Source: Bryobacteraceae bacterium (GTDB lineage: Bacteria > Acidobacteriota > Terriglobia > Bryobacterales > Bryobacteraceae). Taken from it: DNA of 64,000 bases. The stretch spans positions 3,096 to 67,095 of the forward strand of contig JBEKWU010000004.1 in assembly GCA_049512775.1 (NCBI GenBank), in the 5' to 3' direction. Positions 14,655 to 58,962 of the stretch are shown piece after piece (position 1 is the stretch's first letter; each line of letters begins with the position of its first letter). The notes beneath the pieces are model-generated. The model ran no database searches and was not told where the DNA came from. It worked only from the letters and a program-made list of their open reading frames with translations. The translations under genes and the position numbers were made by a program.

Positions 14655-16310
14655 TCAAGGGTTCCAGCCCCAGTAGGTCTCGTATCCTCCGGACAGGTTA
14701 CGGACCTGAAACCCGTGTTGCAGGAGCAGCCGCTGGGCGTAGTAGGACCGCTGGCCGACGGCGCAGTTCACCCAGATTTCCCGGTCGCGTGGGAGTTCGC
14801 GCAACCGCTCCCGCAACTGATTCAAGGGCACATTGATGGCGCCCTCGATGTGACCCGCGGCGTACTCGTCCGGATCGCGCACGTCCAGGATGATCGCCTG
14901 GGTTCCACTGAGTTGCTCCCACGACGCCACAGGCATGTCGCCCCGCAGGACGTTCGCCGCGACCATTCCCGCCATGTTCACCGGATCCTTGGCGGAGCCG
15001 AACTGCGGCGCATAGCACAACTCGCACTCCTCGAGATCGAAGACGGTGGCCTGCTTCTGGATTGCCATCGCCAGGACATCGATCCTCTTGTCCACGCCAT
15101 CCTCCCCTACCGCCTGCGCGCCGAGGATGCGGTTATCCTTGGCGGCGAAGACCAGCTTCATGTGGATGGGCTTGGCGCCAGGGTAATATCCGGCATGGCT
15201 GGCGGGATGGACGTAAATCGCTTGGTAGCCGCAAATGCCAGCGCGGCGCAGGGCCTTCTCGGAGGCGCCGGTGAGGGCCACCGTCAACCCGAACACGCCG
15301 CAAACGACGGTCGACTGGACTCCGCGAAACCTGGCGGGCCGGCCGCAGATCGAATCGGCCGCCACGCGGCCCTGGCGGTTGGCGGGACCTGCCATGGGAA
15401 CCACGCACCACTCGCCGGTCACGACGTCGCGGACCTCCACCGCGTCCCCAACGGCCCAAATGCTCGGGTCGCTGGTGCGCATCGAGCTATCCACACGGAT
15501 GCCGCCCTTCTTCCCGATTTCCAAGCCGGCAGCCGCGGCGAGCGTGGTTTCGGGCCGGACACCCAGTGCCAGCACGACGACATCCGCCGGATGGGGCACT
15601 CCGGACGCCGTCCACACCTGGATCCCGCCACCGGAGCGTGACTCGAACCCGGCCACGCCGTCGCCAAGGTGAAGCGTGACGCGATTGCTTTCCAGGTGCC
15701 GGCTGACAGGCTCCGCCATTTCCGCATCGAGCAGCGGGAGCAATTGCGGCAGCGCCTCGATGATGGTCACGGCCAAGCCGCGGCGGACGAGGTTCTCCGC
15801 CATCTCGAGCCCGATGAGGCCGCCGCCGACGATCACGGCGCGCGCCGGATGGCGGGTCTCGATCCACGCCTTCAGGCAGTGGGTGTCCGCCAGCGTCCGC
15901 AGCGTGAAGATGCCTGGCAGGTCGATGCCGGGCAAGGGCGGCCGGAGTGGAGCGGCGCCGGGGGAAAGGACGAGCGCATCGTACGGTTCGCGGCGCGTCT
16001 GCCCCTTTCGGAGATCGCGGACTGCGATCTCGCCACGCGCGCGGTCGATTGCCACAACCTCGTGCTCGGTGCGGACCTCAACCCTGAAGCGCTCCTGCAA
16101 CAGTTCGGGCGAGGCGACGAACAACCTGCTCTCATCCGGGATCACGTTTCCGACCGAATACGGCAACCCGCAACTGCCGATCGAGACGTAGGGCGCGCGT
16201 TCGAAGACGACGATGTCCGCATGTTCGTCCAGGCGCCGCAGCCTGGCGGCGCAACTCGCACCGCCGGCCATTCCGCCGACGATAAGGACCCGCTTGCGCC
16301 GATGCGTCAT
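14655..16310 (-). CDS. CoA-disulfide reductase-family FAD oxidoreductase fused to a C-terminal rhodanese domain (persulfide/polysulfide reductase-like)
   Basis: RVLIVGGMAGGASCAARL (FAD binding), the redox Cys in SIGSCGLPY, and a C-terminal rhodanese domain with active-site loop CAVGQRS. Start at MTHRRKR; the 699-aa track ORF overruns the TauE gene. Confidence 0.85.
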   Translation of the reverse strand: MTHRRKRVLIVGGMAGGASCAARLRRLDEHADIVVFERAPYVSIGSCGLPYSVGNVIPDESRLFVASPELLQERFRVEVRTEHEVVAIDRARGEIAVRDLRKGQTRREPYDALVLSPGAAPLRPPLPGIDLPGIFTLRTLADTHCLKAWIETRHPARAVIVGGGLIGLEMAENLVRRGLAVTIIEALPQLLPLLDAEMAEPVSRHLESNRVTLHLGDGVAGFESRSGGGIQVWTASGVPHPADVVVLALGVRPETTLAAAAGLEIGKKGGIRVDSSMRTSDPSIWAVGDAVEVRDVVTGEWCVVPMAGPANRQGRVAADSICGRPARFRGVQSTVVCGVFGLTVALTGASEKALRRAGICGYQAIYVHPASHAGYYPGAKPIHMKLVFAAKDNRILGAQAVGEDGVDKRIDVLAMAIQKQATVFDLEECELCYAPQFGSAKDPVNMAGMVAANVLRGDMPVASWEQLSGTQAIILDVRDPDEYAAGHIEGAINVPLNQLRERLRELPRDREIWVNCAVGQRSYYAQRLLLQHGFQVRNLSGGYETYWGWNP

Positions 16311-17224
16311 CGGAACAAGAACTGGCCGATGTAGCCGAACGCCAGGCCGGTGACCAGCACGCCGAGGACCAGGCGAATCCAGCGCTCGGGCAGGAACTTC
16401 TGTATGCGCGCGCCGAGGTAGGTGCCGAAGAGGCCGCCGATGCCGAACAGCGCGCCCAGCGCCCAGTCGGGGCGGACGGCCGCGCCAGCGCCGAGCGAAG
16501 TGAAGCCCAGCAGCTCGAAGAACGCAACGCCGGCTATCGAGGTGACGAAGGTGGCAAGCAGGCACGCGCCGGCGACGGTGTACAAAGGAAGGCCCACGAC
16601 CACCACCAGAAACGGTGCGATGAGGGCGCCGCCGCCGATGCCGTAGATGCCCCCGATGAGCCCAACCACAAGCCCCAGAAGCAAGAGGGTTTTCGGATTG
16701 AAAGAGAACGATTCCTTCCAGAATTCGTACTCGACCCGGCGGATCGAAACGCATTTCATCGTGACGACGGCGCGCGGCGCCCCACGCGCGAGGGACTGCC
16801 GCCAGGCCTCGCTGGCGGGACGGGCGGCCTGGTGGAGCAGGCGCACTCCGAGGTACCAGAGCACGCAGCCGGCGAATGCCTTGAATGAGCGTGCATCGGG
16901 CAGGAAGCGGATGCGGATGACCGCTCCGACAAAGACCCCGGGCAGCGTACCGAGGAGGATCGCCCAGGCGAGCGGCCAGGCCATCCGGCCTTCCCTCAGG
17001 TAGCGGTAGACGCCGCCGGGAGTGGCGACGATGTTGAAGATGAGGTTGGTGGGGCTGACGGCTGGACTCGCAAAACCAAGCACGCTGACTTGAAAGGGCA
17101 AGAGCAGAAACGCGCCGGAGACACCTGCCGACGCGGTCAGCGCGGAGATGACAAATGCCACCACCGGCGGAATCAATAGCGAACAGTCAACGCCGGATAT
17201 CGGGAAGTGCACTGGTAGAGGCAT
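16307..17224 (-). CDS. TauE/SafE (DUF81) family anion (sulfite-type) permease
   Basis: Multi-TM protein with the duplicated GGxxxGP motif (GIGGGALIAPFL). Its stop overlaps the CoADR-rhodanese start by 4 nt. Confidence 0.85.
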   Translation of the reverse strand: MPLPVHFPISGVDCSLLIPPVVAFVISALTASAGVSGAFLLLPFQVSVLGFASPAVSPTNLIFNIVATPGGVYRYLREGRMAWPLAWAILLGTLPGVFVGAVIRIRFLPDARSFKAFAGCVLWYLGVRLLHQAARPASEAWRQSLARGAPRAVVTMKCVSIRRVEYEFWKESFSFNPKTLLLLGLVVGLIGGIYGIGGGALIAPFLVVVVGLPLYTVAGACLLATFVTSIAGVAFFELLGFTSLGAGAAVRPDWALGALFGIGGLFGTYLGARIQKFLPERWIRLVLGVLVTGLAFGYIGQFLFR

Positions 17225-17239
17225 CGTGGGACGTCGGGA

Positions 17240-18292
17240 TCATCGCACGCGGTCACTACTCGCCGCCCGGTTCGCCGGCAGCACGGCCACGCCAGTCGGC
17301 GCCGCATGACGCTCCAGGGAGACCGAGCCCACGACTTGGGCTTGCCGATCACGCGCCGCCGGCGCGATCGTCCGAAGCAGGTCCTCCTCAATATCGGCGA
17401 CAAAGAGGCGGTTATCGGTCGCCGCGATGCCGGATAGCTGCCGCCCGACAGCGGCGCTGCCTGTGACCGCATCGCTGCCCACGTCAATCGTGTGAAGCCA
17501 CCCGCGCACGTCGGTTACGTACAGATGAGACGCCCCGACGAGCGCTGCCCATCGCAACCCGCTCCGGCCGGCGGACACCACCTTTTTCAACTCCAGCGTG
17601 GGCACGCGCAGAACGTGCAGATTCCCGGGCGGCGTAACGCCCCCGCTGTCGTCGTTTTCCAGCGCAGATCCACCCAGGAGGACGTACAGCTTTGTCCCAA
17701 ACGGCGAGAATATGACGTGCCTGACCCTCGACCCGATGGCCCGCACGCTAATGAACGCGGGAGGGAAGACCGCGGTGTCGTACAGCAGCACATGTCCCGT
17801 TCTCGTACCCACGGCAAGTAGGGCGCCGAAGGTCGCCACCGCGAACGCCGAACCCGCACCGTGGGCGCTGATGTCGATGGAACCCAGAACGGAGTTCTTG
17901 CGGCCCTGAGAACACTTGGCGATGTCAACGATGGTCACGTGCGGCGGCGCTACACTGTCGTTGGCGACGTACAGTCGCGTGTCCGCATTCCCGACGGCCA
18001 TTTTGGCCGGAGAAGACGGAGTCGGGATCAGAGCCACGACGGAGTCATCCGAGGTCCGAAGAACGGAGACGCCGTCCCGGTTAGGCTCAGACACATAAAG
18101 ATACTGGCCGTCCCCGGAAAACACGAGATCCAGCGGATTGCCCGGCAGCGGGATCGACTTGACCAGTCTGTCGGGTGTCAGCCGATATAGCTTCTTTGCG
18201 GCGAATCCCGCCACATAGACGTCCTGAGCCGCGCCAATGCCGCTCGCAAGCACGCAGCAGATGGCGAGTTGATTCAGCACCCTTGATGCCAT
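17240..18292 (-). CDS. Secreted YVTN/YncE-like beta-propeller repeat protein
   Basis: Signal peptide MASRVLNQLAICCVLASGIGAAQD. Repeated motifs ...LYVSE, ...LYVAN, ...LYVLL, ...LYVTD and ...LFVAD occur every ~40-50 aa. Confidence 0.65.
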   Translation of the reverse strand: MASRVLNQLAICCVLASGIGAAQDVYVAGFAAKKLYRLTPDRLVKSIPLPGNPLDLVFSGDGQYLYVSEPNRDGVSVLRTSDDSVVALIPTPSSPAKMAVGNADTRLYVANDSVAPPHVTIVDIAKCSQGRKNSVLGSIDISAHGAGSAFAVATFGALLAVGTRTGHVLLYDTAVFPPAFISVRAIGSRVRHVIFSPFGTKLYVLLGGSALENDDSGGVTPPGNLHVLRVPTLELKKVVSAGRSGLRWAALVGASHLYVTDVRGWLHTIDVGSDAVTGSAAVGRQLSGIAATDNRLFVADIEEDLLRTIAPAARDRQAQVVGSVSLERHAAPTGVAVLPANRAASSDRVR

Positions 18293-18375
18293 GTCACACC
18301 CCCGAGCCATCGGTTTCGGCTCTTCCATGCCTAGCTCACATTGCGAGCGGCGCTGCCAGCTTGAAGCGGCGTCAA

Positions 18376-18774
18376 TTACGGGCGCGGCGCGCCGAGGATT
18401 TCGCGGATTTTCGCTAGCAGTTGTTCGCGGTCGGGCGGCTTATCGAAGTAGCCCGCCGGCGGGTGCACCTGGCTGCGGGTCTCGATAAACCGCTTGAAAT
18501 CGTGGGACACGCCGGTCAGGATCACCACCGGGATGCCGGCGGTCTCGGCGTCCTCCTGCAAATTGCGGAACATGCGCACGCCGGATTCCTCCGGCATCGT
18601 GATGTCGAGAGTGATCAGGTCGGGATGCTCCGCCTTGGCCTTCTCGAAGCCCTCCTTGCCGTCCGTGGCGAAACTGACGGAGAAACCACTGTCTGCGAAA
18701 AACGCCCCCAGGTAGGCCAGCACGTCCGATTCGTCATCGACGATCAGGATTTTCTTGGCTGTTCGTTCCTCCAT
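18376..18774 (-). CDS. Stand-alone response-regulator receiver (CheY-like)
   Basis: KILIVDDESDV...PDLITLDITMPEESG...PVVILTG...KP receiver signature. No output domain. Confidence 0.9.
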   Translation of the reverse strand: MEERTAKKILIVDDESDVLAYLGAFFADSGFSVSFATDGKEGFEKAKAEHPDLITLDITMPEESGVRMFRNLQEDAETAGIPVVILTGVSHDFKRFIETRSQVHPPAGYFDKPPDREQLLAKIREILGAPRP

Positions 18775-18784
18775 GCCAATCCTC

Positions 18785-19294
18785 CTACTTCTTCTTCATG
18801 GCGTCTAGCGCCCGCTGCAAGGTGTCGCGGTCGGCCGAGAACACCGCCCGAGACAACTCGCGCCGCAGGTCTTCCGGCTCGGGCTCCGGCGCTTCGGGGA
18901 TTTCGGCTCCCAGCAACCTGCGGACCGCCGCGACATACGTTGCCGGGCGCACCGGTTTTTCCAGGTAGACGCCCGGGCCGGACATGGTCATCTCGTCAAA
19001 ATCGGCTTTGCCCATCTCGTCGCGTGCGTGGCCGGTGACGATCAGGACGGGTATCTTGGACAATCGCTTGTCCTTCTGGAGCTCGCGATAGAATCTCGCG
19101 CCGGAATGGCGGGGCATCACCAGGTCAAGAGAGATCAGATCCGGCGGGCTGCGTCTGACGGCTTCGAGCGCCTGCAAGCCATCCGCAGCCGTGTCCACCA
19201 AAAAGCCGGCGTCTTCAAGAGCGATCCTCAGGTAATCGCGGACGTCCGCCTCGTCGTCCACAACCAGAACGCGTTTCTCCATTCCATCGGTCAT
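18785..19294 (-). CDS. Response-regulator receiver with a short C-terminal helical tail
   Basis: RVLVVDDEADV...PDLISLDLVMPRHSG...PVLIVTG...EKP. The ATG overlaps the kinase stop (ATGA). Confidence 0.9.
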   Translation of the reverse strand: MTDGMEKRVLVVDDEADVRDYLRIALEDAGFLVDTAADGLQALEAVRRSPPDLISLDLVMPRHSGARFYRELQKDKRLSKIPVLIVTGHARDEMGKADFDEMTMSGPGVYLEKPVRPATYVAAVRRLLGAEIPEAPEPEPEDLRRELSRAVFSADRDTLQRALDAMKKK

Positions 19295-21123
19295 GATCTC
19301 ACCTCCGGCGCGCCTTTCGCCGCGCTTGCCGCCGCCGCGAGCGTCAAAAGGCGCTTGCGCGGCAGGCGGATCCGGAAAACCGAGCCCTGGCCGGGCGTGG
19401 ACTCCACCTCGATGCGGCCGCCGTGCTCGTGCACGATCTTGCGCGTGGTCAGGAGCCCGAGGCCCGTGCCTTTGCCGCCTTTGGTGGTGAAGAAGGTCGT
19501 GAACACCTTGCCTTTGACTTCCCAATCCATCCCACAGCCGTTATCGATCACCTCGAAGACGAGGTCGTCCGACTCGTCCCTAGTCCGCAGGAGGACTTTC
19601 CCGCCGCCCTCTTCGCGCATCGCCGCGGCGTCGATGGCGTTGGAGATCAGGTTGGTCAGGCTCGTCTCCATACCCTTGCAATCCAGCGGAGCTTCACGCA
19701 CGTCCGCGCCCGCATCCAGCACGACTTCGACACCCTGCAATCTAGCGGTGTCGCGATACAGGTCGACGATTCCACCCGCGATCGCGTTCGGGGCGACCGT
19801 TCGCAACTCCGGCAACCGGCCCTTGGCAAAGCCGAGGAAATCCTTTACGAGGGTGGTGGTCTTCTGCAGGTTGCGCTGAAGGACTTCCCAGCCATCGGCG
19901 ATCCGCTTGGCGTCGTTGCGGTGGAAGCCGCTGTCCACCATGTACATTCCGCCTTCCAGTCCCATCAAGAGGTTCTTGATCGTATGGGCGAGTCCGGCCA
20001 CCGTCTGCCCGACGGCGGCCAAGCGCTCGGCTTCCAGTTTCTCCTGCTCGAGCCGCTTGATTTCCCGGAGATCCTCCATGAACGCGGCGCGCCCAATGCG
20101 CCTGCCGCGGCTGCTCAACTCCACCGCGGAGAACCTGACCGGGACCTCGGGCGCATCGGGAGGCCGGAGCAGGGCTTCGGCCAGGTTGAGCGGCGCCCCG
20201 CCCTCGATCCCGAAGAACTCCGGAGGCAGCGTGCGTTTCAGCCAATCAGCCGCCGGCAGTTGCTTCGCCTTCCAGCTCAACAGCGCCCTTGCAGCGGGAT
20301 TCACTACTCTTGGGTCGCCCGCCGCGTCGACGGCCAGGATGCCGGAGGTGGAGTTGCGGACGAGACTCTCATAGAAATCCTGGGCCTTTTGCAACTCCCG
20401 TTCCAACTTTCGTACGCCGGTGATATCGGTGGCCATTTCGATCACGTGCGCCACTCCGCCCTCGCCGCGCGACAACGGCGTCGCAGTCACGATGTAATGC
20501 GCAGGCGAACCGTCCTGACGGACGCCGCTCTCGGTGGAGACGTGATCGGCCCCATCCGCGAATGTTAACGCGGCGGGGCAGTTTACGCAGGGTTCCTCGC
20601 GGCGCTTGCAGAGCTCATAGCAAAACTTGCCCGCGGTCTCGCCGAAGGCCCGCCGGAAGGTCTCGTTGGCCCGGATCACGTGGTAGTCGCGGTCCACGAC
20701 GAGCACATAGCACGGCACCCGCTCGAAAAGCAGGTTGTACTCGCGCTGCCAGCGCCGAGTCTCGGTCAGGTCGGAGGTCATTTCGACGACGTACTTCACC
20801 TGGCCGTCTTCATCCCCCAGGGGCGCGAGATGAACGACGTAGTGGCAGGTGCGCCCGTGACGATCGACTCCGGTTTCATCGGAGACGCGCGCGCGCCGGT
20901 CCGCAAAGGTCGCCTGCGCCTGGCAGTGTTCACAGCGCTCGGCCGAACCCTTGTACACTTCGTGGCACCGCCGGCCGCGCCAGTCGCCGAAGTATTCCTC
21001 AAAGCTCCCGTTCGCGGCGACCACGTTGAAATCGCGGTCGATCACCGCCACGTTGAAGGGAACCTGCTCGAACAGCCCTCTGCCGAGCAGGGCGTCCAGC
21101 TCGTGATGGGGCAGATCGCTCAT
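19291..21123 (-). CDS. Soluble multi-PAS sensor histidine kinase with Cys-rich PAS modules
   Basis: No TM segment. Two N-terminal modules carry C-x10-C-x2-C (CHEVYKGSAERCEHC) and C-x3-C-x6-C-x2-C (CYELCKRREEPCVNC). The H-box is LAHTIKNLL, and the ATPase N and G boxes are NLISNAIDA and GTGLGL. The start overlaps the upstream gene's stop. Confidence 0.9.
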   Translation of the reverse strand: MSDLPHHELDALLGRGLFEQVPFNVAVIDRDFNVVAANGSFEEYFGDWRGRRCHEVYKGSAERCEHCQAQATFADRRARVSDETGVDRHGRTCHYVVHLAPLGDEDGQVKYVVEMTSDLTETRRWQREYNLLFERVPCYVLVVDRDYHVIRANETFRRAFGETAGKFCYELCKRREEPCVNCPAALTFADGADHVSTESGVRQDGSPAHYIVTATPLSRGEGGVAHVIEMATDITGVRKLERELQKAQDFYESLVRNSTSGILAVDAAGDPRVVNPAARALLSWKAKQLPAADWLKRTLPPEFFGIEGGAPLNLAEALLRPPDAPEVPVRFSAVELSSRGRRIGRAAFMEDLREIKRLEQEKLEAERLAAVGQTVAGLAHTIKNLLMGLEGGMYMVDSGFHRNDAKRIADGWEVLQRNLQKTTTLVKDFLGFAKGRLPELRTVAPNAIAGGIVDLYRDTARLQGVEVVLDAGADVREAPLDCKGMETSLTNLISNAIDAAAMREEGGGKVLLRTRDESDDLVFEVIDNGCGMDWEVKGKVFTTFFTTKGGKGTGLGLLTTRKIVHEHGGRIEVESTPGQGSVFRIRLPRKRLLTLAAAASAAKGAPEVRS

Positions 21124-22973
21124 GGCCTGGGGACCGGAGGCAACATGACCTGCTTGCCCACCGGCCCGCTCCCGTAAAAGGCAAGATTGCCGACATCCAC
21201 GGCATCCCGTCTCTCTTTATGGCACATTGCGCAACGCGCCAGGTCCGGTTTGTTTTGCTCTTTCGCCGCCTTCGCATGGCACCCGACGCACAGCTCGTGC
21301 ATCGCCTGCACGTAGGATACGGCGCGGTACTGCTTCACCTTGATCGTGGCCCCCGCGGGCACGAGGTCTTTGTGGCACCGATCGCAGGGCTTGGCCGTGG
21401 CCGCGCTGCGCGGCTCTCCCCGGCGGTGACACTCGGAACAGCCCAGCCGGGCGCCCGTGGGCGATGCGTGCCAGTCGTGCTGGAAGGCATCGGCCGGCTG
21501 ATACATGTCGCGGTGGCACCGGCTGCATCCGGAATTCCGGTCGCGCGGCAAGTTCATGTGGTGACACATAACGCAGGGAGCCTTGACACCGTTGCGCTGC
21601 CCGTGGTCCTCGTGCTTGAACGCCACCCCGTAGCCGTCGAGGTTCCCGTCAATCCACAGTGTCTCTCCGCCGCGGGCATGGTGGACTGGCGCCGGATCGA
21701 CGCCGCGGCTCGCCGCCGCGCCGGGCGCGAGGAACGCAAATCCGGCGGAGGCGGCAACAATGAACGCAAGCGAGTATATCGTGCGCGCGGCCACTGCGGG
21801 AACGCCCAGCCAGGTAGTCCCCACGCTGTCGAACTCGGGCAGCTTGAGCGGATCGGCCTCGGGATCGGCGGGGCGGTGTTCCCAAACCTTGAAGCGCTCC
21901 ACCATGAACAGGAACGCCAGCACCGCCGCGGCGAGGATGCCCAACGTGATCGCGATTTCCGTCCAGGCGGGCACGTAGAAATCCTCGCTTCGCCGCGTGT
22001 GCGCCAGCCCGCCGACATCGATGCGGTTCAGCACGACCCCGAGCACTCCCAGCACCGCCACCGTCCGCTGGCCCGCCTGTGCGTATCTGACCCGCGGGAT
22101 GAACAGCAGGGCGGCGGGAACGATCGCCATGGCCGCCAGCTCGAGCCAGAACAGTTCCACTTGCCATCCGGCTGCCCAGAGCCGGTGGAGCTGGCCGCGC
22201 GCGGCAAGATCGCCGAACCTCAGGGCGAGATAGAGAACCAGGACCCACCGCGCCGCGCCGCCCAGTTCGGCCAGCAATTCCGTCTCGGGTTTGCGGCGGT
22301 AAATATAGGCGGTGAGATGGCTCTCGAAGAGCACCATCATCATGCCCAGGCCGATCGCGGACACGAAGAACAGCACCGGGAGCGCCGGCGAATACCAGAG
22401 CGGATGCAGCCTGTACGGCATGATGAGGAACAACGAACCCAGCGAGGACTGGTGCAGCGTCGAGAGCCCGATCCCCACAATCACCAGCGGCAGACGCACC
22501 TTGATCAGAGCCCGCCGGATTCTCGCCAGCGCGCTGAACTCTTCGGCCGGAACCGGGAAGAACTCCAGGGCCAGAACCGCAAGGTACAGCATGACGCACC
22601 AGCCGACCTCGAACAGCGGCGAATGGGGGTTCCAGAAAACGAGCATGTGCCAGATATTCCAGGGCAGGCCGAGGTCGAACAGCAAGCTCACCGCCACGGC
22701 CACATAGCCGAGAAAGGCCGTCAGGACCGCCGGGCGCACGATGGAACGAAACCGCTCCAGCTTGAAAATGTAGACCGTAGCCGTGACGATGAAACCGCCC
22801 GCCGCGAGCGCGACGCCGCTCATCACGTCGAAGCCGATCCAGATCCCCCAGGGGGTGGCGTCGGATAGATTGGTAGTCGGCCCGAGTCCGAACAGAAACC
22901 GCGCGACGGCGGCGGCGGCCGCCAGCCCGGTCACCATCCAGAGCGCGAACTTCAGCTTGCGGGCTCTATCCAT
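21120..22973 (-). CDS. NrfD/HybB/HmcC-type integral membrane quinone-interacting subunit fused to a C-terminal hexaheme cytochrome c domain
   Basis: The N-terminal ~400 aa form a polytopic NrfD-like protein (PWGIWIGFDVMSGVALAAGGF...). An extra TM follows, then six CxxCH motifs: CVMCH, CSRCH, CSECH, CDRCH, CVGCH, CAMCH. Confidence 0.85.
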   Translation of the reverse strand: MDRARKLKFALWMVTGLAAAAAVARFLFGLGPTTNLSDATPWGIWIGFDVMSGVALAAGGFIVTATVYIFKLERFRSIVRPAVLTAFLGYVAVAVSLLFDLGLPWNIWHMLVFWNPHSPLFEVGWCVMLYLAVLALEFFPVPAEEFSALARIRRALIKVRLPLVIVGIGLSTLHQSSLGSLFLIMPYRLHPLWYSPALPVLFFVSAIGLGMMMVLFESHLTAYIYRRKPETELLAELGGAARWVLVLYLALRFGDLAARGQLHRLWAAGWQVELFWLELAAMAIVPAALLFIPRVRYAQAGQRTVAVLGVLGVVLNRIDVGGLAHTRRSEDFYVPAWTEIAITLGILAAAVLAFLFMVERFKVWEHRPADPEADPLKLPEFDSVGTTWLGVPAVAARTIYSLAFIVAASAGFAFLAPGAAASRGVDPAPVHHARGGETLWIDGNLDGYGVAFKHEDHGQRNGVKAPCVMCHHMNLPRDRNSGCSRCHRDMYQPADAFQHDWHASPTGARLGCSECHRRGEPRSAATAKPCDRCHKDLVPAGATIKVKQYRAVSYVQAMHELCVGCHAKAAKEQNKPDLARCAMCHKERRDAVDVGNLAFYGSGPVGKQVMLPPVPRP

Positions 22974-23718
22974 CCGACTTCTCTTTCTGCCTCTTCATCC
23001 GCCTGCCGATGATCCAGTTGATTCCCGTCATCACCGCCAGCGCTCCGGTGAAAGCGAACGGGACCGCGTTCATCGCGTCGGCCGTCCTGAGCGGAACGGG
23101 CGTGTCGCCCAGGCCGCGGCCCTGCGTCAGGAACGAGAGGTCGACGTTGGAAACGTATAGGACCGAGGTCCCTCCGATCTCGTGCTCTCCCCACACCCGG
23201 TTCACGTAGACGCCCGGAGCCTCGCGGATGCGGCGGTGAGCTTCGGCCAGCAGGCTGTCGCGGTCTCCGAAAATCGTGGCTTTGACCGGACACACCTGGG
23301 TGCAGGCGGGCTGGGAGCCGGCGCGCAGCCGCTCGTAGCAGAGGATGCACTTGCGGACGTAAGGGACCGCCAGCTCCCAGTCGTAGCGCGGGATGCCGTA
23401 GGGGCAGGCCATCATGCAGTAGCGGCAGCCCATGCACTTGCCGCTGTCGTAGACCACCGCGCCCATTTCCGTCTTGTGCAGCGCGCCCACCGGACAGGCG
23501 GAAACGCACGCCGGCTCGAGGCAGTGGCGGCACTGCTTGCGCACGAACGCGTGCTTCGGCCCCTCGACAATGGAAGTCCAGTTCCGGGCGGACAGGCCGT
23601 CGTCGACGTCCCACCGCCGCGGGAGGTCCGGAGCAAGGTGGTTCACCTTCTTGCAGGCGACCGCGCATTCGTTGCAGCCGATGCACTTGGTGGTATCGGT
23701 GAGAATGGCCGCTTTCAT
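22966..23718 (-). CDS. HybA/DsrO/HmcB-type 4x[4Fe-4S] ferredoxin subunit with a C-terminal TM anchor
   Basis: CIGCNECAVACK, CRHCLEPACVSACP, CMGCRYCMMACP and CILCYERL...C clusters. C-terminal helix FAFTGALAVMTGINWIIG. Start at MKAAILTD. Confidence 0.85.
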   Translation of the reverse strand: MKAAILTDTTKCIGCNECAVACKKVNHLAPDLPRRWDVDDGLSARNWTSIVEGPKHAFVRKQCRHCLEPACVSACPVGALHKTEMGAVVYDSGKCMGCRYCMMACPYGIPRYDWELAVPYVRKCILCYERLRAGSQPACTQVCPVKATIFGDRDSLLAEAHRRIREAPGVYVNRVWGEHEIGGTSVLYVSNVDLSFLTQGRGLGDTPVPLRTADAMNAVPFAFTGALAVMTGINWIIGRRMKRQKEKSDG

Positions 23719-24491
23719 TTCGTGCGAGCCTCCTTTTCGGCGGGCGCGGGCGCCGCGGGCGCACCGTTTAACCGCGCCCTCTGCGCCCAGGAGGGCCGGT
23801 CCGCATAGCCCAGGGTGGCGGCCACGCGGTCGCCGGCCCCCGCGGGGAACTTCCAGGCAATGCCCGTCACCAACTGCGAGAGCGGCGCCAGCACGCAGTG
23901 GGCGATCTTGGTGAACGGGATCGTCGCCATCACCAGGTCGGCCGAGTAGACGTGGAACAGCATTACGGTCCGATAGGCCTTGGGGCCGATGGCGGCGTTC
24001 GAGCAGATGTACCCGGTGGCGAACGGCAGCGCGAGCAGCAGCAGCCAGGCATAATCCTGGAACCGGCTCAGCGCGCGTGCGCCGGCGTCCGCCGCGCGTC
24101 CGAGGAAGAGGCCCAGCGCCGTGGCAATCACGAGCAGCGTCAGCCAGTCGGCCGCCGGCTGAGGGAGGGCAGGCCAGGCGAAACCCACGGAACGCTTCCA
24201 CAACAGGACGTGCGCGGCCAGGAAAGGCGGAACCAGCAACAGGCCGGCGTGGAAAAGGACCGAAATCGCGCTGTAGACCGGCCGCTTGCTCCACAGTTTG
24301 CCCAACGGAGCCAACCACCCCAGGGTCCGCTTCACAATCTCCTTCCACGGCACGATCTTGTCCGGGTTGCGCCGGTAGCTTTCCGCAACCCCGATGAAGG
24401 TGAGCAGGAAGATCCGCAGCAGGCCGAGAACCATCAGGGAGAAGCTCAGCCGGAACAACGGCCCGCGGCCGAACTCAAGCCACGCGTCCAC
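23715..24491 (-). CDS. NarI/DsrM/HmcE-like di-heme cytochrome b membrane subunit
   Basis: Polytopic protein of the nitrate-reductase gamma-like type (FHAGLLLVPPFLAAHVLLW, VMLFHVYSADLVMATIPFTKIAH). I prefer the GTG at 24491, which has GGAGG 8 nt upstream; the track's ATG at 24521 is the alternative. Confidence 0.75.
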   Translation of the reverse strand: MDAWLEFGRGPLFRLSFSLMVLGLLRIFLLTFIGVAESYRRNPDKIVPWKEIVKRTLGWLAPLGKLWSKRPVYSAISVLFHAGLLLVPPFLAAHVLLWKRSVGFAWPALPQPAADWLTLLVIATALGLFLGRAADAGARALSRFQDYAWLLLLALPFATGYICSNAAIGPKAYRTVMLFHVYSADLVMATIPFTKIAHCVLAPLSQLVTGIAWKFPAGAGDRVAATLGYADRPSWAQRARLNGAPAAPAPAEKEARTK

Positions 24492-25917
24492 TTGGCTCAC
24501 CTCCCGGGCGGTCGAAGACAATGGCCTTGTACAGCAGGTCGTGCAGCCCCACGATCTGGCAATCGATCCCCTGGTCCTCCATCAGCTCGCGGAGCTGCTT
24601 CTTGCAGTTGGCGCAGGGCGCGACACAGTATTTGGCTCCGGTCGCTCGAATCTGATCGGCCTTGACACGGCCCCCGATCAGGGTCCGGTAGGGACGAATC
24701 TCGTCGATCGAGACAGTACCCCCGCCTCCGCCGCAGCAGATGTTGTCGCGCCGGTTGGGGGTCATCTCGACGTAGTTCCTGCAAAACGCCTTCAGCAGCT
24801 CGCGCGGCTGCTCGACGATCCAGCCGGGACGAGCGATATTGCACGGATCGTGGTACGTGACTTTCTCGGTGACGACGTTTGGGTCGAGCTTGAGGCGCCC
24901 CTCCTTCCAGGCCTGGTGCGTGTACTCCATGATGTTGAGGACGGGAAGCGCGTTCTTCCCCCCGCAGTAGGTGGGGTAGAAGAATTTGGCCGAGCGGGAC
25001 GCGTGGCCGCACTCGCCGATAAGAATCTTCTTCACCTTGAGCCGCTCGGCCTCCGCCTGGATCTTCCGCAACACGTGCTCCAGAACGTGGTCGCTGTAGA
25101 ACAGGCCGTAATTGATGCCGTCGAAGTAGCCCGTGCCGATAGTCCAACTGTCGCCGGTGGCCCGGAACACGGCGGCGTTGCCCATGAGCGTGTCGGCTTC
25201 CATCAGGAAGTCCGAGACGGCGGGGATGAACAGATACTCCGCGCCCTCCTGGTCGATCGGGAAGGGGATATCGATGCCCTTCTCCTCCCCCATGTCCTCG
25301 CTGAGAAACTCGAGGCTGTCGAGCAGGGCGGGAACGGGAATCGCGGAGGTGTTGCCGCTGGCGCCGAGCAGTTGCTCCCGGACGCTGACCGCCAGGGCCC
25401 GCGGCACGATACCGATTTCAGACAGAATGTAGCGCCCGAGGTGGGTGATGAGCGCGTGATCGATGCCCATGGGGCATTCGAAGTGGCAGCGGCGGCAGGC
25501 GGTGCAGTTGTAGAAGGATTCCGCCATCTCCTGGACCTTGTCGTCGGTCAGGCCCGGGTCGCCCAGGATGCGCCCGCGCAAAACGCCCGAAATCGTGAAA
25601 TGGCGGCGATAGACGGACAGCAGCAGCTCGGAGCGGTAGCAAGGGATGTCTTTCGCGTCGCCGGTCGCGAGATAGACCTGGCAGTTGGTGGTGCAGCGGG
25701 AGCACTTCGCGCCCACGCGGACATAGTGATCCAGGGCCACCCGGTAATTCGTGTGCTTGAGGATGGCGGCGAACGCTTCGAGGAACCGGCGCGGGCGCTC
25801 TTGCACGTCGAAGTCCTCGACGTGATAGCGGACGGCGAGGCGCTGCTTGCGGATCGCTTCCGGCTTCCTCGCGCTGGCCAGCGCTCTTTTTCTCTCTTCG
25901 GCGTTCAGTGGTTGCAT
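24475..25917 (-). CDS. HdrD/DsrK/HmcF-like CCG-domain iron-sulfur protein (paralog 1)
   Basis: Ferredoxin motifs CSRCTTNC and CTACRRCHFECP, plus CCG-type motifs (HDPCNIAR, ICCGGGGG, APCANCKKQ). Confidence 0.85.
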   Translation of the reverse strand: MQPLNAEERKRALASARKPEAIRKQRLAVRYHVEDFDVQERPRRFLEAFAAILKHTNYRVALDHYVRVGAKCSRCTTNCQVYLATGDAKDIPCYRSELLLSVYRRHFTISGVLRGRILGDPGLTDDKVQEMAESFYNCTACRRCHFECPMGIDHALITHLGRYILSEIGIVPRALAVSVREQLLGASGNTSAIPVPALLDSLEFLSEDMGEEKGIDIPFPIDQEGAEYLFIPAVSDFLMEADTLMGNAAVFRATGDSWTIGTGYFDGINYGLFYSDHVLEHVLRKIQAEAERLKVKKILIGECGHASRSAKFFYPTYCGGKNALPVLNIMEYTHQAWKEGRLKLDPNVVTEKVTYHDPCNIARPGWIVEQPRELLKAFCRNYVEMTPNRRDNICCGGGGGTVSIDEIRPYRTLIGGRVKADQIRATGAKYCVAPCANCKKQLRELMEDQGIDCQIVGLHDLLYKAIVFDRPGGEPSGRVA

Positions 25918-26084: not shown

Positions 26085-27248
26085 TCATCCCGCGAGGCTC
26101 TCCCGTACCGAAAGAGTGATCCTGTAAAAGACCGTGATCATCAGAATGCCAACCGCCCAGATGCCCGCGGTGATCGAGATCTCCGGCAGCGTGGGCGCGT
26201 ACTCCGTGACCGCTCCCAGCGGCGAGGGAATGAAGCCGGAGACCACCAGGCACATCCCTTTGTCGATCCAGAGCGAAAGAAAGACGGCCGCGCAGGCCGA
26301 CGCCAGCAGGCGCTCGTCGTGGCGAAACCGCGGCACGATCAGCAGCACCAGCGATGCCGCCGCCAGCAGCACCGAGGTCCACATCCACGGTACCAGTACG
26401 CCGCGGCCGTTCAGACCGAAGAACAAGTATTCGAAGTGGCGCAGGTGATCCGGAATCCCGCTGTAGAACGCCGTGAAGATCTCCATCAGGACAAAGAACA
26501 CGTTGACGATCATGGCGTAGGTAACGATCAGCGCGAGCTTCTGAATGGGTTCGCGGCCCGGGTCGAAGCGCGTCAGCCTGCGAATCAGCATGCAGAGCAG
26601 GATGAGCAGCGCCGGCCCGGCGGAGAATGCCGAAGCGAGGAAGCGCGGAGCCAAAATCGCGGTGAGCCAGAAGGAGCGTCCGGGCAGACCGCTGTAGAGG
26701 AACGCGGTCACGGTATGGATGCTGATCGCCCACGGGATCGAGAGCAGAATCACCGGCCTGATCCAGCCCGGCGGCGCAACCGAGTTCCGCTCGGAGCGCA
26801 GCGTGACCAGCGCGATGACAGCGTTGAGCAGCAGGTAACCGCCGAGGGAGACCATGTCCCAGAACATGAGCGACCGGGGTGTCGGGTAGAGCAGCACGTT
26901 CAGCACGCGCGCCGGCTGGCCCATGTCCACGAACACAAACAGCATGCACATGACCACGGAGGAAACCGCCAGGAACTCGCCCAGGATGGTGATCTTGCCG
27001 AACGCCTTCCAGTCGTGCAGGTAGTAGGGCAGCACCACCATGACGGCGGAGGCGGCCACTCCGACCAGGAACGTGAACTGAGCGATGTAGAGGCCCCAGG
27101 AGACGTCGCGGCTCATGCCGGTGATCGCCAGGCCCTCGCTCAGTTGGCGCATATAGAAGAGAAAGCCGAGGCCGATGACCGCGAACAGAGAGAGAATCCA
27201 GATCCAGTACCGCCGGCCGCCGACCAACGCTTTTTCAAACATGAACAT
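26085..27248 (-). CDS. dsrP: DsrP, the NrfD-family membrane subunit of DsrMKJOP
   Basis: 387-aa polytopic NrfD-like protein lying directly after dsrO in the dsrMKJOP order. Confidence 0.85.
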   Translation of the reverse strand: MFMFEKALVGGRRYWIWILSLFAVIGLGFLFYMRQLSEGLAITGMSRDVSWGLYIAQFTFLVGVAASAVMVVLPYYLHDWKAFGKITILGEFLAVSSVVMCMLFVFVDMGQPARVLNVLLYPTPRSLMFWDMVSLGGYLLLNAVIALVTLRSERNSVAPPGWIRPVILLSIPWAISIHTVTAFLYSGLPGRSFWLTAILAPRFLASAFSAGPALLILLCMLIRRLTRFDPGREPIQKLALIVTYAMIVNVFFVLMEIFTAFYSGIPDHLRHFEYLFFGLNGRGVLVPWMWTSVLLAAASLVLLIVPRFRHDERLLASACAAVFLSLWIDKGMCLVVSGFIPSPLGAVTEYAPTLPEISITAGIWAVGILMITVFYRITLSVRESLAG

Positions 27249-27257
27249 AGCGGCGCC

Positions 27258-28007
27258 TCATACGATATAGAAGATGGACGGCCTGGTGCCGAGCTCGGAC
27301 TTGCGCCGGGTGGCGTATCGCGACCGCAACAACTCGCGCACGGGCGAGCCGGCGTCGTTCAGGTCGCCGAAGACCAGCGCTTTCTCCGGGCATGCCTCGA
27401 CGCAGGCGGGCGGACGGCCGCTGGCGAGCCGCTCTTCGCAGAAATTGCACTTCTCGACCACGCCCGTGGTGCGGGTCGGGAAATCGGGGTTCAGTTCGGC
27501 AATGTGCGGCCGCGGATCGCTCCAGTTGAAGCTGCGCGAGCCGTACGGGCAGGCGGCGATGCAGTAGCGGCAGCCGATGCAGCGGTGCCAATCCATCATC
27601 ACGATTCCGTCTTCGCGCTTCCAGGTGGCCTGAGTAGGGCAGACCCGCGTGCAAGGGGGATCGTCGCAATGATTGCACAGCACCGGGATGGGTTGGCCCC
27701 TGAGGGCGCCGGGAGTGTAGCCGCCTTCCGAGCCCAACACGTTCTCGAATTGGGCCTTCCAGATCCAGACGATCTCGCGCCGGCGGTCTTGGAACACGGG
27801 GATGTTGTGGGCCTTGTTGCAGGCGGCAATGCACTTGATGCAGCCCTCCTTCTGGAGGCACTTGCCGATATCGACTACCATGGCCCAGCGGCGTGCCTTC
27901 CTCGCCGGCGCTACCCTCTCCCCGATCGCCCCCAGGAAGCGCCTCGCCGTAACCGCGACCAGCGAGAAGCCCGTGATGCGCAGGAATCCTTTCCGAGTGA
28001 TGTTCAT
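27258..28007 (-). CDS. dsrO: DsrO, the periplasmic 4Fe-4S ferredoxin subunit of DsrMKJOP
   Basis: Tat-like leader MNITRKGFLRITGFSLVAV. Clusters CIKCIAAC, CNHCDDPPCTRVCP, CIGCRYCIAACP and CNFCEERL...CVEACP. The ATG overlaps the dsrJ stop. Confidence 0.85.
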   Translation of the reverse strand: MNITRKGFLRITGFSLVAVTARRFLGAIGERVAPARKARRWAMVVDIGKCLQKEGCIKCIAACNKAHNIPVFQDRRREIVWIWKAQFENVLGSEGGYTPGALRGQPIPVLCNHCDDPPCTRVCPTQATWKREDGIVMMDWHRCIGCRYCIAACPYGSRSFNWSDPRPHIAELNPDFPTRTTGVVEKCNFCEERLASGRPPACVEACPEKALVFGDLNDAGSPVRELLRSRYATRRKSELGTRPSIFYIV

Positions 28008-28405
28008 GGCCGGCTCCTCGCCACCAGCTTGGGATCGATATGGCAGTCCATGCAGTATGGCCCCTTGACGCCCACGTAGTTGTGGCAGCGGTCGCAGAAA
28101 TCGGCCTTGTTTGTGTGGCAGCCGGAGAGGCAGGTGCCGGTGAGGCTCATGTTGTATGTTTTGCCGTTGAACGCGGTGAAGCTGCGCACGTTGCGGCGAA
28201 CCACTTCCTCGCGCCAGTTCACGAGCAGAGCCATGTGCGACGTCTTCATGTAATCGACCGGCGCCACGCACTGCTTCTCCTGGGCGGGCAGCCGGACCTC
28301 GGGCGGCTTCGCGGTCTTCCCTGCGGCCGCGTTGTACCAGGCGGGGAACGTCAGCAAGCCGAGAAACGCAGCCAGGCCCGCGTAGATGACGCCTTGGTCA
28401 CGCAT
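28004..28405 (-). CDS. dsrJ: DsrJ, the membrane-anchored triheme cytochrome c
   Basis: N-terminal anchor, the conserved Cys in EKQCVAP, and three heme sites: CLSGCH (CX3CH spacing), CDRCH and CMDCH. Confidence 0.85.
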   Translation of the reverse strand: MRDQGVIYAGLAAFLGLLTFPAWYNAAAGKTAKPPEVRLPAQEKQCVAPVDYMKTSHMALLVNWREEVVRRNVRSFTAFNGKTYNMSLTGTCLSGCHTNKADFCDRCHNYVGVKGPYCMDCHIDPKLVARSRP

Positions 28406-30014
28406 GGGCCGCCTCCGCCTGCGGGAGCGGCTCGCCGCGCAGATCCGTGGTCCGCTCCTTCTCGTCCTTCATGACGAGCGCGTTGCCGACCAGTTCGTGC
28501 ACCCCGGCCACGTCGACGCCGGGCACCCAGTACTCGAGCAGGGTGGGCAGGGTTGCCTTATCGATGGCGCACATGCACGTCAGCATGTTCACGCCGTACC
28601 TCTCCTTGACGTACTTGACCGCGTTCGCGCGAGGCAGGCCGCCACGGAGCCGCATCTCGAGGTTCTCGTCCGTGCCCAGACCCGCGCCGCTGCCGCAGCA
28701 AAAGCTCTGCTCGCGAATCGTGTTTTCGGGCATCTCGTGGAACCGGCGGCAGACGCTGCGCAGGATGTACCGCGGCTCCTCGAGCAGGCCCATCCCCCGC
28801 GCAATGTTGCAGGAGTCGTGATAGGTGACGGTCAGGCGGTCGTTGCGCATCGGGTCGAGCTTCAGCTTCCCGTTCGCGATCAGGTCGGCGGTGAACTCGG
28901 CGATGTGCACCATCTTGGTCGCGCGCGCGTTTTCAAACCGCGTACCGGTGATGGGCGAAACCGGCTCCTCCAGAAAATCGGCCGGGCCGTTCATCGTGTC
29001 CATATACTGATTCAGTACCCGCCACATGTGGCCGCACTCGCCGCCCAGAATCCACTTCACCCCCAAACGCTTCGCCTCGGCGTAGATCTTCGCGTTCAGC
29101 CGCTTCATCATTTCGTGCGAGGCGAACAGGCCGAAGTTGCCGCCCTCGGAGGCGAACGCGCTGAAGGTGAAGTCCAGGCCGATCTCGTGGAACAGCACCA
29201 GGTAGCCGAGCAGCGTGAAATAGTGCGGCGAGGCGAAGTAGTCGGCCGACGGCACGACAAACAGAATCTCCGCGCCTTTCCTGTTGATCGGCGCCTCGAC
29301 GCGCGCGCCGGTGAGCTCTTCGATCTCGTCCACCGCGAAATCGATGCTGTCCTTAAACCCGTGCGGCTGGATTCCGAGATGGTTGCCCGTGCGGTAGCAG
29401 TTGGCCGCCGGCTCGATGACCCAGTTGATGTTGCAGCCCACCAGGTTGAGCAGCTCGCGGCCGATCATGGTGATCTCCGCCGTGTCGATGCCGTAAGGAC
29501 AGAACACCGAGCAGCGCCGGCACTCCGTGCACTGGTAGAAGTAGTAGAACCACTCCTTGACGACATCCTCGGTAAGGTCGCGTGCGCCGGCGAGTCCGCC
29601 AAAGAGCCGGCCGGTCAGCGTGAAGTAGCGGCGGTAGACCGAGCGGATCAGCTCGGCGCGCAACACCGGCATGTTCTTGGGATCGCCCGAGCCCAGGTAG
29701 AAGTGGCACTTGTCGGCGCAAGCGCCGCAGCGCACGCAAATGTCCATGAACAGCCGGAACGAGCGGTACTTGTCAAGCCGCTCTTTCATGCCCTCGAGCA
29801 GAATCCGCTTCCAGTCCGGCGGCAGCTTCCAATCCTTGTCGAAGGGCTGCCACTCGCGCGGATTTGGCATGTCCAGGTACTTGAGATTCTTCGCGGCGGC
29901 GCTGTAGCAGAAGACTCCTTTGCGGAATTCGACCGCCGGGTCTCTCCAGTCCCTCTCAGGCGGCTGGTAGTCGACCTGGACGAGTTGCTCGGGCCGCGGC
30001 GTTGGATCAGCCAT
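28398..30014 (-). CDS. dsrK: DsrK, the HdrD-like catalytic iron-sulfur subunit
   Basis: MADPTPRPEQLVQVDYQPPERDW..., with CVRCGACADKC, CTECRRCSVFCP, HDSCNIARG and FCCGSGAG CCG motifs. Start chosen 2 nt after the dsrM stop. Confidence 0.9.
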   Translation of the reverse strand: MADPTPRPEQLVQVDYQPPERDWRDPAVEFRKGVFCYSAAAKNLKYLDMPNPREWQPFDKDWKLPPDWKRILLEGMKERLDKYRSFRLFMDICVRCGACADKCHFYLGSGDPKNMPVLRAELIRSVYRRYFTLTGRLFGGLAGARDLTEDVVKEWFYYFYQCTECRRCSVFCPYGIDTAEITMIGRELLNLVGCNINWVIEPAANCYRTGNHLGIQPHGFKDSIDFAVDEIEELTGARVEAPINRKGAEILFVVPSADYFASPHYFTLLGYLVLFHEIGLDFTFSAFASEGGNFGLFASHEMMKRLNAKIYAEAKRLGVKWILGGECGHMWRVLNQYMDTMNGPADFLEEPVSPITGTRFENARATKMVHIAEFTADLIANGKLKLDPMRNDRLTVTYHDSCNIARGMGLLEEPRYILRSVCRRFHEMPENTIREQSFCCGSGAGLGTDENLEMRLRGGLPRANAVKYVKERYGVNMLTCMCAIDKATLPTLLEYWVPGVDVAGVHELVGNALVMKDEKERTTDLRGEPLPQAEAAHA

Positions 30015-30016
30015 GT

Positions 30017-57113: not shown

Positions 57114-57127
57114 TAGGAGGTCATTCC

Positions 57128-58390: not shown

Positions 58391-58532
58391 CCGGCCGATG
58401 ACGCGCGGCGCGCCGCCGGCACGCAAGGTGGCGCGTCGCGCGCGGTCCCGCCGGATAGCGGTAAGAGGGGGACGTGAAGAGGCCTCTCGGTCTCGAGAAC
58501 CGGCTCGAGACGTTACTGCGGGAGATCGGGGC

Positions 58533-58952: not shown

Positions 58953-58962
58953 GGAACCGGCT

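Follow-up and report, generated by a model that had tools for sequence, protein, structure and literature searches.

An Hmc-type transmembrane electron-transfer complex is predicted from four overlapping genes, designated K2, M2, O2 and Pc, that follow the dsr gene array of a Bryobacteraceae bacterium, a peat-soil acidobacterium. The genes lie on the minus strand of the window, which is the whole stretch of DNA analyzed here (64,000 nucleotides [nt]; positions 3,096 to 67,095 of the forward strand of contig JBEKWU010000004.1, assembly GCA_049512775.1). They encode, in this order, a CCG iron-sulfur protein, a NarI-type cytochrome b, a ferredoxin and an NrfD-type membrane protein that is fused to a multiheme cytochrome c. 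The ligands for six c hemes, four Fe-S clusters, two b hemes, two ferredoxin-type clusters and one CCG-type cluster are present in the four proteins. We estimate a probability of about 0.6 that the putative complex serves anaerobic dissimilatory sulfur metabolism.

Pc is an NrfD protein fused to a periplasmic six-heme cytochrome c

The subunits were assigned to families by Pfam and NCBIfam profile scores. With Pfam, residues 35-318 of Pc matched NrfD at 66.3 bits (cut-off 25.8), and residues 475-585 in its C-terminal part matched Cytochrom_CIII at 48 bits (cut-off 22.9) and Cytochrome_C7 at 27.7 bits. With NCBIfam, Pc scored 316 bits against HmcC (residues 13-369; cut-off 550), 275 bits against HybB (cut-off 450), 120 bits against QrcD (cut-off 570) and 28 bits against DsrP (cut-off 350), and the heme domain gave weak scores against HmcA (26 bits; cut-off 400) and TmcA. 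Pc belongs to the NrfD/PsrC superfamily (PF03916) by gathering score and polytopic membrane domain, and its heme domain belongs to the class III (c3-type) cytochromes by score, by CxxCH motifs with further histidines and by its location after an odd-numbered helix. The six CxxCH motifs are found at residues 467, 483, 512, 530, 562 and 581. All six were invariant in a 29-sequence alignment of Pc orthologues, together with histidines 454, 472, 499, 502 and 559, and they are laid out as two N-terminal hemes followed by a cytochrome c3-like four-heme unit. Sequence searches of the PDB returned cytochrome c3 (2bq4_A, E 3e-4) as the only match of the heme domain and no match for the NrfD domain of Pc.

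Helices and topology were taken from a hydropathy scan and from counts of lysine plus arginine in the loops. Eleven hydrophobic segments were found in Pc, ten of them in the NrfD domain, and the loops contained 20 lysine plus arginine residues on the side of an inside N terminus compared to 6 on the outer side. The same eleven helices were present in the secondary structure of an AlphaFold2 model built from the 29 orthologues, which was used only for helix positions (mean predicted local distance difference test score 54, and below 50 in the heme domain). The eleventh helix, with a hydropathy peak at residues 389-416 and a model helix at residues 392-414, follows a 30-residue charged linker, and both linker and helix were conserved in all 29 aligned orthologues. 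Since the N terminus is inside and an eleventh helix is present, the heme domain faces the periplasm, which is the location that c-type heme attachment requires, and the NrfD domain, being fused to it, is held in its usual orientation.

Assemblies from JGI, ENA and Logan contain 19 contigs that code for exactly this 617-amino-acid (aa) Pc protein, and the gene callers agreed with the gene calls made here. The best 120 database clusters were 64-94% identical to Pc and all contained both domains, at a length of 602-656 aa in nearly all of them (565 aa in one). A search with the C-terminal 233 residues of Pc gave 355 clusters at 50% identity, and many of them were proteins of 600-690 aa that matched at their C terminus, indicating that more distant fusions exist too. 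Related loci were collected by scanning one genome per species together with a metagenome collection, and were annotated by tblastn with the window proteins over approximately 10 kb on each side; the resulting family comprises 54 distinct loci with Pc identity down to approximately 42%. These findings bear out an earlier sequence-only reading of this DNA, which had described a 617-aa NrfD protein that has an additional helix and six CxxCH motifs: hydropathy, motifs and alignment agree with it, a cytoplasmic heme domain, which would have refuted it, is contradicted by the eleven helices and the charge distribution, and the fusion is spread over more than 120 clusters and 54 loci from several phyla.

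According to Duarte et al. (2018), HmcC, HybB and QrcD form a single ten-helix clade whose members are probably electrogenic quinone reductases; the authors also list the residues of the menaquinone pocket and of the cytoplasmic proton path in QrcD of Desulfovibrio vulgaris. By offset matching, 8 of these 15 quinone-site and proton-path residues (D100, L120, E122, Y68, Y90, Y130, E137 and E144) were identical in Pc at a constant offset of 20, and all eight were invariant or nearly so in the alignment. DsrP from the window, used as control, gave no more than four matches at any offset. This pattern suggests that Pc keeps a Qrc/Hyb-type quinone chemistry.

Variants of the fusion were also seen. 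P0109 (656 aa) has an insertion carrying two further CxxCH motifs, which makes eight hemes. An Armatimonadetes contig with a short flank (L057, 1970-3922) encodes a six-heme fusion of 650 aa that is preceded by an O2-like gene. Among the Pc orthologues, two distant ones (L117 5750 and L118 9989) begin with MTRNRRLAV... and MENRRAFIVK..., respectively, and are twin-arginine-like before helix 1. Most Pc orthologues have R-x-R-K-L-K at this place instead, and the NRR of the two proteins is probably ordinary positive-inside charge.

K2, M2 and O2 carry invariant cofactor ligands

K2 matched the Pfam families CCG (45.9 bits; cut-off 20.6), Fer4_8 and Fer4_17. Placed by hidden Markov model bit scores, it was closest to DsrK in NCBIfam (300 bits; cut-off 400), followed by TmcB (212 bits) and HmcF (197 bits; cut-off 750), and it is 36% identical to the DsrK of the window. 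Two four-cysteine ferredoxin motifs and one complete CCG motif (C..CCG..CxxC) were found, as is characteristic of the HdrD/DsrK/HmcF/TmcB CCG proteins to which K2 belongs, and 13 cysteines (72/75/79/93, 138/141/144/148 and 359/394/395/435/438) were invariant in 38 of 38 orthologues. Neither a hydrophobic segment nor a signal was seen in K2. The PDB search with K2 returned one distant reductase only, and no solved Hmc- or Dsr-type relative was detectable in the PDB sequence searches.

M2 gave a weak match to Nitrate_red_gam in Pfam. In NCBIfam it scored 119.9 bits against HmcE (cut-off 275) and 116.0 bits against TmcC, also below cut-off, and did not match DsrM. Its five hydrophobic segments follow a NarI-like arrangement with nine lysine plus arginine residues in the first loop. 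Histidines 81, 94, 180 and 198 were invariant in 44 of 44 orthologues and fit the ligands of two b hemes, as expected for a protein of this type. The 258-aa version is the one whose start is used by the gene callers.

O2 matched Fer4_11 in Pfam. Its NCBIfam scores were 235 bits against HmcB (cut-off 420; profile positions 37-291 of 307), 205 bits against HybA (cut-off 263; positions 40-322 of 329) and 104.5 bits against DsrO (cut-off 200). The 16 cysteines of O2 were invariant in 52 of 52 orthologues. One C-terminal helix is followed by RRMKRQKEK, and these tail residues (RRMKRQ-type) resemble those of the tail-anchored periplasmic proteins HybA and FdnH; FdnH (1kqf_B) was also the best solved relative of O2 in the PDB search.

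The cluster is Hmc-like with a DsrK-like subunit

Because M2, O2 and Pc scored best as Hmc subunits in NCBIfam (HmcE, HmcB and HmcC, respectively) and only K2 scored best as DsrK, the description that fits the putative complex best is Hmc-like, with a CCG subunit that resembles DsrK, and not a second DsrMKJOP. The sequence-only reading had called it 'DsrMKJOP/Hmc-like'. Judged by best score, the Hmc half of that name and the analogy with Hmc hold for M2, O2 and Pc, the Dsr half holds for K2 and fails for the other three, and the underlying module assignments (CCG, NarI-type, four-cluster ferredoxin, NrfD) are upheld by Pfam, NCBIfam and the invariant ligands.

The module types are the same in the HmcABCDEF complex of D. 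vulgaris, where HmcF is the cytoplasmic CCG iron-sulfur protein, HmcE the NarI-type cytochrome b, HmcB the tail-anchored four-cluster ferredoxin, HmcC the NrfD protein with ten helices and HmcA the periplasmic multiheme cytochrome of the c3 type. Moreover, the hmc operon is followed by regulator genes (rrf1 and rrf2), as is the cluster described here. In contrast to Hmc, the gene order is F-E-B-C/A instead of ABCDEF, and HmcD is absent, since the four genes overlap and leave no room for a further gene. HmcA is a separate protein with 16 hemes, whereas here six hemes are fused to NrfD through an extra helix. O2 lacks a signal peptide, K2 is closer by score to DsrK than to HmcF, all scores against Hmc families are far below the equivalog cut-offs, and the hosts belong to Acidobacteriota, Calditrichota, Ignavibacteria and other groups and not to Desulfovibrionaceae.

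DsrMKJOP likewise combines a CCG protein, a cytochrome b, a ferredoxin, an NrfD protein and a c-type cytochrome, and the two clusters are adjacent in several genomes. They differ in that M2 has no DsrM match, O2 and Pc are far below the DsrO and DsrP cut-offs, a separate three-heme DsrJ is absent from the cluster, the order is K-M and not M-K, and DsrO has an N-terminal signal-like segment that O2 has not. QrcABCD and HybA-HybB share the ten-helix NrfD clade and the combination of multiheme c input, ferredoxin and NrfD. Unlike in Qrc and Hyb, there is neither a QrcB-like molybdopterin-family subunit that could act as carrier for twin-arginine translocation (Tat) nor a hydrogenase, the cytochrome is fused, and a cytochrome b and a CCG protein are joined to the unit. 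TmcABCD resembles the cluster in that K2 is similar to TmcB and M2 to TmcC (212 and 116 bits, respectively) and the heme domain is weakly similar to the c3-type TmcA. Tmc has no ferredoxin-NrfD pair, however, its cytochrome is a separate four-heme protein, and the scores are far below cut-off.

The nearest paralogous family ('family B'; 111 loci, for example L043 6537-13110, L007 5343-13151 and L037 6410-13668) is not represented in the window. Its ferredoxin and NrfD proteins are 40-53% identical to O2 and to the NrfD domain of Pc, and a two-component system is always linked, but it lacks both a CCG protein and a cytochrome b, contains GcvH-like proteins in their place, and uses another type of kinase. 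Family B loci contain genes for a GcvH-like protein with a membrane anchor, a HybA-like ferredoxin that has no signal, a HybB-like NrfD and often a cysteine-rich GcvH-like protein. They further encode a HAMP histidine kinase that contains one CxxCH, a response regulator of the sigma54 type and a Peptidase_M54 protein (archaemetzincin). The NrfD of family B has either no heme or an extra helix with three CxxCH motifs (approximately 520 aa), and its hosts are Acidobacteriota, Bacteroidota, Ignavibacteria, KSB1 and Latescibacterota. We know of no description of this family.

No description of an NrfD-multiheme fusion or of a K-M-O-P(c) complex was found in the NrfD review, in the Qrc, Tat tail-anchor and acidobacterial dsr papers with their supplements, or in full-text searches, in agreement with the sequence-only reading, which did not know the architecture as characterized; an earlier mention in Pereira et al. 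(2011) or Duarte et al. (2021, BBA) is possible. All of the module types are already known, so that the complex is not categorically new.

The gene block is conserved and is associated with dsr genes

Of the related loci with at least 3.1 kb of upstream sequence, 38 of 38 had K2, M2 and O2 ahead of the fused gene, showing that the four genes are inherited as a block. The named hosts were Bryobacterales, Solibacteraceae, Korobacteraceae, Sulfopaludibacter, Binataceae, Calditrichota and Ignavibacteria. Of the 34 family loci with at least 6 kb of flank, 10 had dsr or sat neighbors, compared to none of 89 loci of family B (Fisher p = 9e-7). In L085 the cluster follows dsrMKJOP-dsrN, and this is probably also the case in L001 and L002 (dsrP-K2 gap of approximately 2.3 kb). 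It lies directly after dsrN-sat in L004, L010 and L099 and before dsrAB in L108, L114 and L124, and in L118 sat and dsrN are near the cluster on the other strand. The position of the cluster is not tied to dsrP.

Transcripts of orthologous genes are contained in published metatranscriptomes. In the Sulfopaludibacter metagenome-assembled genome (MAG) CO124, the orthologues are genes 670-673; Pc is P0105/L170 on contig NODE_7_length_92532, with K2, M2 and O2 upstream. Reads per kilobase per million mapped reads (RPKM) for the four genes ranged from 0 to 1.2 in the four oxic samples and from 1 to 7.6 in the four anoxic ones, with log2 fold changes of -4.1 to -5.9 and adjusted p values of 1.7e-4 to 1.8e-12. 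The dsrO and dsrP genes of the same MAG reached 0.8-2.9 RPKM under anoxic conditions, a level similar to that of the cluster genes. These findings show that the CO124 cluster is transcribed almost only under anoxic, sulfate-reducing conditions. In the supplementary table of Dyksma and Pester (2023), the orthologous genes are listed under 'NiFe hydrogenase group 2 - Hyb' (Hyb/hydB). The genes had thus already been seen and measured, but were filed as a hydrogenase module.

A kinase and two response regulators extend the operon

The kinase gene overlaps Pc by 4 nt (ATGA) and overlaps the first response regulator gene (RR1) by 4 nt, and a second one (RR2) follows RR1. The coupled unit is one of seven genes and the operon continues past Pc; the 'four-gene version' of the sequence-only reading therefore holds as a conserved block but not as the end of the operon. 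A C-x10-C-x2-C motif is present in each of the two PAS domains of the kinase (Cys 53/64/67 and Cys 168/179/182) and was conserved in 17-18 of 18 orthologues, which suggests a metal- or cluster-based redox sensor. In loci with at least 2.5 kb of downstream sequence, the kinase and regulator genes were beside the cluster in 24 of 35 and missing in 11, including L001, L002, L010, L085, L108 and L114, which are beside dsr genes, and the CO124 cluster. RR1 orthologues follow the kinase in L003, L052, L087-L089, L091, L097 and others, and RR2 is conserved after RR1 in many related loci.

In hosts other than Acidobacteriota, two genes usually lie ahead of the cluster, one for a PAS-sigma54 activator and one for a protein of 273 aa that contains a Nitro_FeMo-Co (NifX/MrpORP-like) domain and, at its C terminus, a CPxCG...CCGAH motif. 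This pair was seen in L003 (2410-4997), L005 (4124-4948), L101-L105, L110, L116, L123, L126 and L138. In the window, both genes are missing from the region upstream of K2.

Proposed mechanism and alternative explanations

In the proposed mechanism, the heme domain of Pc would exchange electrons with periplasmic carriers, and O2 would wire the hemes to the menaquinone site of the NrfD domain. This site would draw protons from the cytoplasm, as in Qrc, and the step would for that reason be electrogenic and may conserve energy. M2 and K2 would pass electrons on, either from quinol or directly, and the acceptor would be a disulfide or trisulfide in the cytoplasm, most plausibly the one in DsrC. 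If the four subunits assemble accordingly, the complex would correspond to a Qrc/HybAB-like module joined to a DsrMK/TmcBC-like module, as proposed for Hmc, and the direction of electron flow may be reversible. The cysteine-rich PAS kinase and the two CheY-like regulators would probably adjust the system to the redox state.

Several observations weigh against an Hmc-type complex in sulfur metabolism. All four subunits fall short of the Hmc, Tmc and Dsr equivalog cut-offs, the quality of the Pc model is poor and gives no support for any subunit interface, and the correspondence with QrcD is an offset match and not an alignment with the QrcD sequence. No dsr gene was found in 24 of 34 loci within the flanks scanned, and some clusters stand alone (L087-L089 and L170), several of them with the kinase and regulators only. 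A periplasmic donor (hydrogenase, formate dehydrogenase or soluble c3) is not encoded near the cluster. Moreover, a Tat or Sec signal is absent from O2 and from every homologue beside an HmcC/HybB-like NrfD (approximately 80 loci), and no twin-arginine protein recurred within 10 kb in the 33 related loci scanned. The periplasmic position of O2 is predicted solely from homology and from the positive residues after the tail helix.

The start of O2 coincides with the first cluster motif in each of the approximately 80 related loci, whereas HmcB, HybA and DsrO have an N-terminal Tat signal. Part of the assumed topology consequently remains prediction. Tail-anchored ferredoxins without a signal are known from the work of Palmer and co-workers, in which they hitch-hike with a [FeFe] hydrogenase that is targeted to Tat. 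No Tat partner of that [FeFe]-hydrogenase type is encoded at the window cluster, and O2 may be exported by another partner or by a new route, or may be located in the cytoplasm.

Because many loci stand alone, the main alternative is that the same machine is a general anaerobic respiratory module that is not dedicated to DsrC and serves another thiol or disulfide or plain transmembrane electron transfer, the adjacency to dsr genes being specific to the Bryobacterales lineage. This explanation is possible, though we would not call it probable. The units with only kinase and regulators in Korobacteraceae and others (L087-L089) fit it, as do the different contigs on which the cluster and dsrMKJOP are found in MAG CO124, and the neighbors outside Acidobacteriota, which are the PAS-sigma54 activator and the NifX/MrpORP-like protein and not dsr genes. 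K2 is moreover below the DsrK cut-off in a window that already has DsrK and a third DsrK-like paralogue. A lineage-specific adjacency is difficult to reconcile, however, with dsr or sat neighbors in at least four arrangements that reach down to 47-55% Pc identity (L108, L114, L118 and L124) and that are missing from the 89 control loci, and transcription in CO124 tracks sulfate-reducing conditions. Genes for a rhodanese, TauE and a CoA-disulfide reductase-rhodanese are also nearby in the window, with rhodanese or TauE genes in L087 and L170, and they too count against this alternative.

The seven-gene unit could also be mainly a redox-sensing device, in which the complex reports the state of the quinone pool or the periplasm to the PAS kinase and from there to the CheY-like regulators and does not carry bulk respiratory flux. 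Translational coupling of the kinase and RR1 to the complex, the presence of kinase and regulators in 24 of 35 loci, the conserved motif in both PAS domains and the constant joining of family B to a kinase and regulator would agree with such a device. We nevertheless consider it improbable, as the kinase and regulators are missing from 11 of the 35 loci, dsr-adjacent ones and the transcribed CO124 cluster included, and as approximately 15 redox centers, a conserved quinone site and a proton path are typical of energy metabolism. The hmc operon of D. vulgaris, too, has rrf1 and rrf2 downstream and yet is no sensor.

That the genes are the HybA/HybB part of a hydrogenase-2-type [NiFe] hydrogenase is suggested by the HybB and HybA scores (275 and 205 bits), by the listing of Dyksma and Pester (2023) and by the source annotations of relatives ('Ni/Fe-hydrogenase cytochrome b subunit', 'HybB-like'). 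Both scores are below cut-off and below those of HmcC and HmcB, however, and no hydrogenase gene was found in any of the Pfam-annotated loci (L081, L085, L087-L089 and L170). The constant partners are a CCG protein and a cytochrome b, Pc carries six c hemes, and O2 lacks the signal peptide of HybA, which makes a hydrogenase module very improbable. The last alternative, that the fusion is an assembly or frameshift artifact, has a counterpart in L006 (5060-9884; a nanopore-derived Solibacteraceae MAG), where frameshifts interrupt each of K2, M2 and Pc and are most likely sequencing errors rather than a sign of pseudogenes, but it is ruled out for Pc, to near certainty, by the identical protein on 19 contigs of independent assemblies, the domain pair shared at nearly the same length by the best 120 clusters, the 54 loci with identity down to approximately 42%, and the conserved linker and eleventh helix.

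Organization of the locus in the window

The four genes end a same-strand array of aprA, qmoABC, dsrAB, dsrL, dsrC, dsrT and dsrMKJOP (Table 1). As read from the sequence, K2 and M2 overlap by 17 or 47 nt, M2 and O2 by 4 nt (ATGA), and O2 and Pc by 8 nt (ATGGATAG), and 167 nt separate the stop of the canonical dsrP (26085-27248) from the start of K2. The K-M-O-P order, the overlaps and this distance are the same as first reported for the locus. In the 167-nt gap, a scan found no terminator-like site on the minus strand. A sigma-54 promoter (GG-N10-GC) was looked for because related loci have a sigma54 activator, and a search of the gap by eye gave no convincing match. The sigma-70 and terminator scans of the gap were uninformative.

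Table 1. Positions of the K2-M2-O2-Pc cluster and its neighbors in the window.
Feature	Position (nt)	Strand	Description
K2	24475-25917	minus	480 aa, cytoplasmic HdrD/DsrK-like CCG iron-sulfur protein
M2	23715-24491 (GTG start, 258 aa); TTG alternative to 24521 (268 aa)	minus	NarI-type cytochrome b, HmcE/TmcC-like
O2	22966-23718	minus	250 aa, tail-anchored four-Fe-S-cluster ferredoxin, HmcB/HybA-like
Pc	21120-22973	minus	617 aa, NrfD plus eleventh helix plus six-heme cytochrome c
Pc, NrfD domain (residues 1-361)	21891-22973	minus	Ten helices, HmcC/HybB/QrcD clade
Pc, eleventh transmembrane helix (residues 392-416)	21726-21800	minus	From hydropathy, model and alignment
Pc, cytochrome domain (residues 417-617)	21123-21725	minus	Periplasmic, six hemes
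PAS-PAS histidine kinase	19291-21123	minus	610 aa, soluble; Pfam PAS_4 (two) and HATPase_c
RR1, single-domain response regulator	18785-19294	minus	169 aa; Pfam Response_reg only
RR2, single-domain response regulator	18376-18774	minus	132 aa; Pfam Response_reg only
dsrMKJOP	26085-31009	minus	All five above NCBIfam equivalog cut-offs
dsrT, dsrC, dsrL, dsrBA, qmoCBA, aprA	Upstream of dsrMKJOP, up to 43507	minus	DsrA, DsrB, QmoC and AprA above cut-off; DsrC and DsrT by Pfam

Further minus-strand genes (14655-18328) lie downstream of the regulators: 17240-18328 encodes a beta-propeller protein that is secreted, 16307-17224 a permease of the TauE/SafE type, and 14655-16310 a CoA-disulfide reductase with a fused rhodanese domain. 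In L087 and L170, too, there are rhodanese or TauE genes near the cluster. On the plus strand, the region 55722-61499 contains dsrN, sat, a response regulator gene, a gene for a distant DsrM-like cytochrome b (58963-59895) and one for the third DsrK-like protein (59787-61499), which scored 329 bits against DsrK, below cut-off, with the same score pattern as K2.

Implications

Acidobacteriota and other lineages that were recently found to carry dsr genes are thought to drive a hidden sulfur cycle in peatlands and sediments. The electron routes between periplasm, quinone pool and cytoplasm in these lineages are known only by analogy with Desulfovibrio. The cluster described here is a candidate link between periplasmic electron carriers and DsrC, one that is masked in annotation as 'hydrogenase cytochrome b' or 'polysulfide reductase NrfD', and its description corrects a hydrogenase assignment in published data. 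The natural fusion also fixes the membrane orientation of an NrfD subunit, and the signal-less O2 is a testable puzzle for the field of Tat transport and hitch-hiker proteins.

A more far-reaching reading is that the seven-gene unit represents a new operating type, in which O2 either reaches the periplasm without a Tat signal, by a new export or hitch-hiking route, or is cytoplasmic, unlike in all NrfD complexes solved so far, and in which the PAS kinase reads the redox state of the complex directly and signals through two CheY-like proteins. We regard this as unlikely. If true, it would mean that electron transfer and signaling are combined in one machine that is common to newly recognized sulfate and sulfite reducers of soils and sediments.

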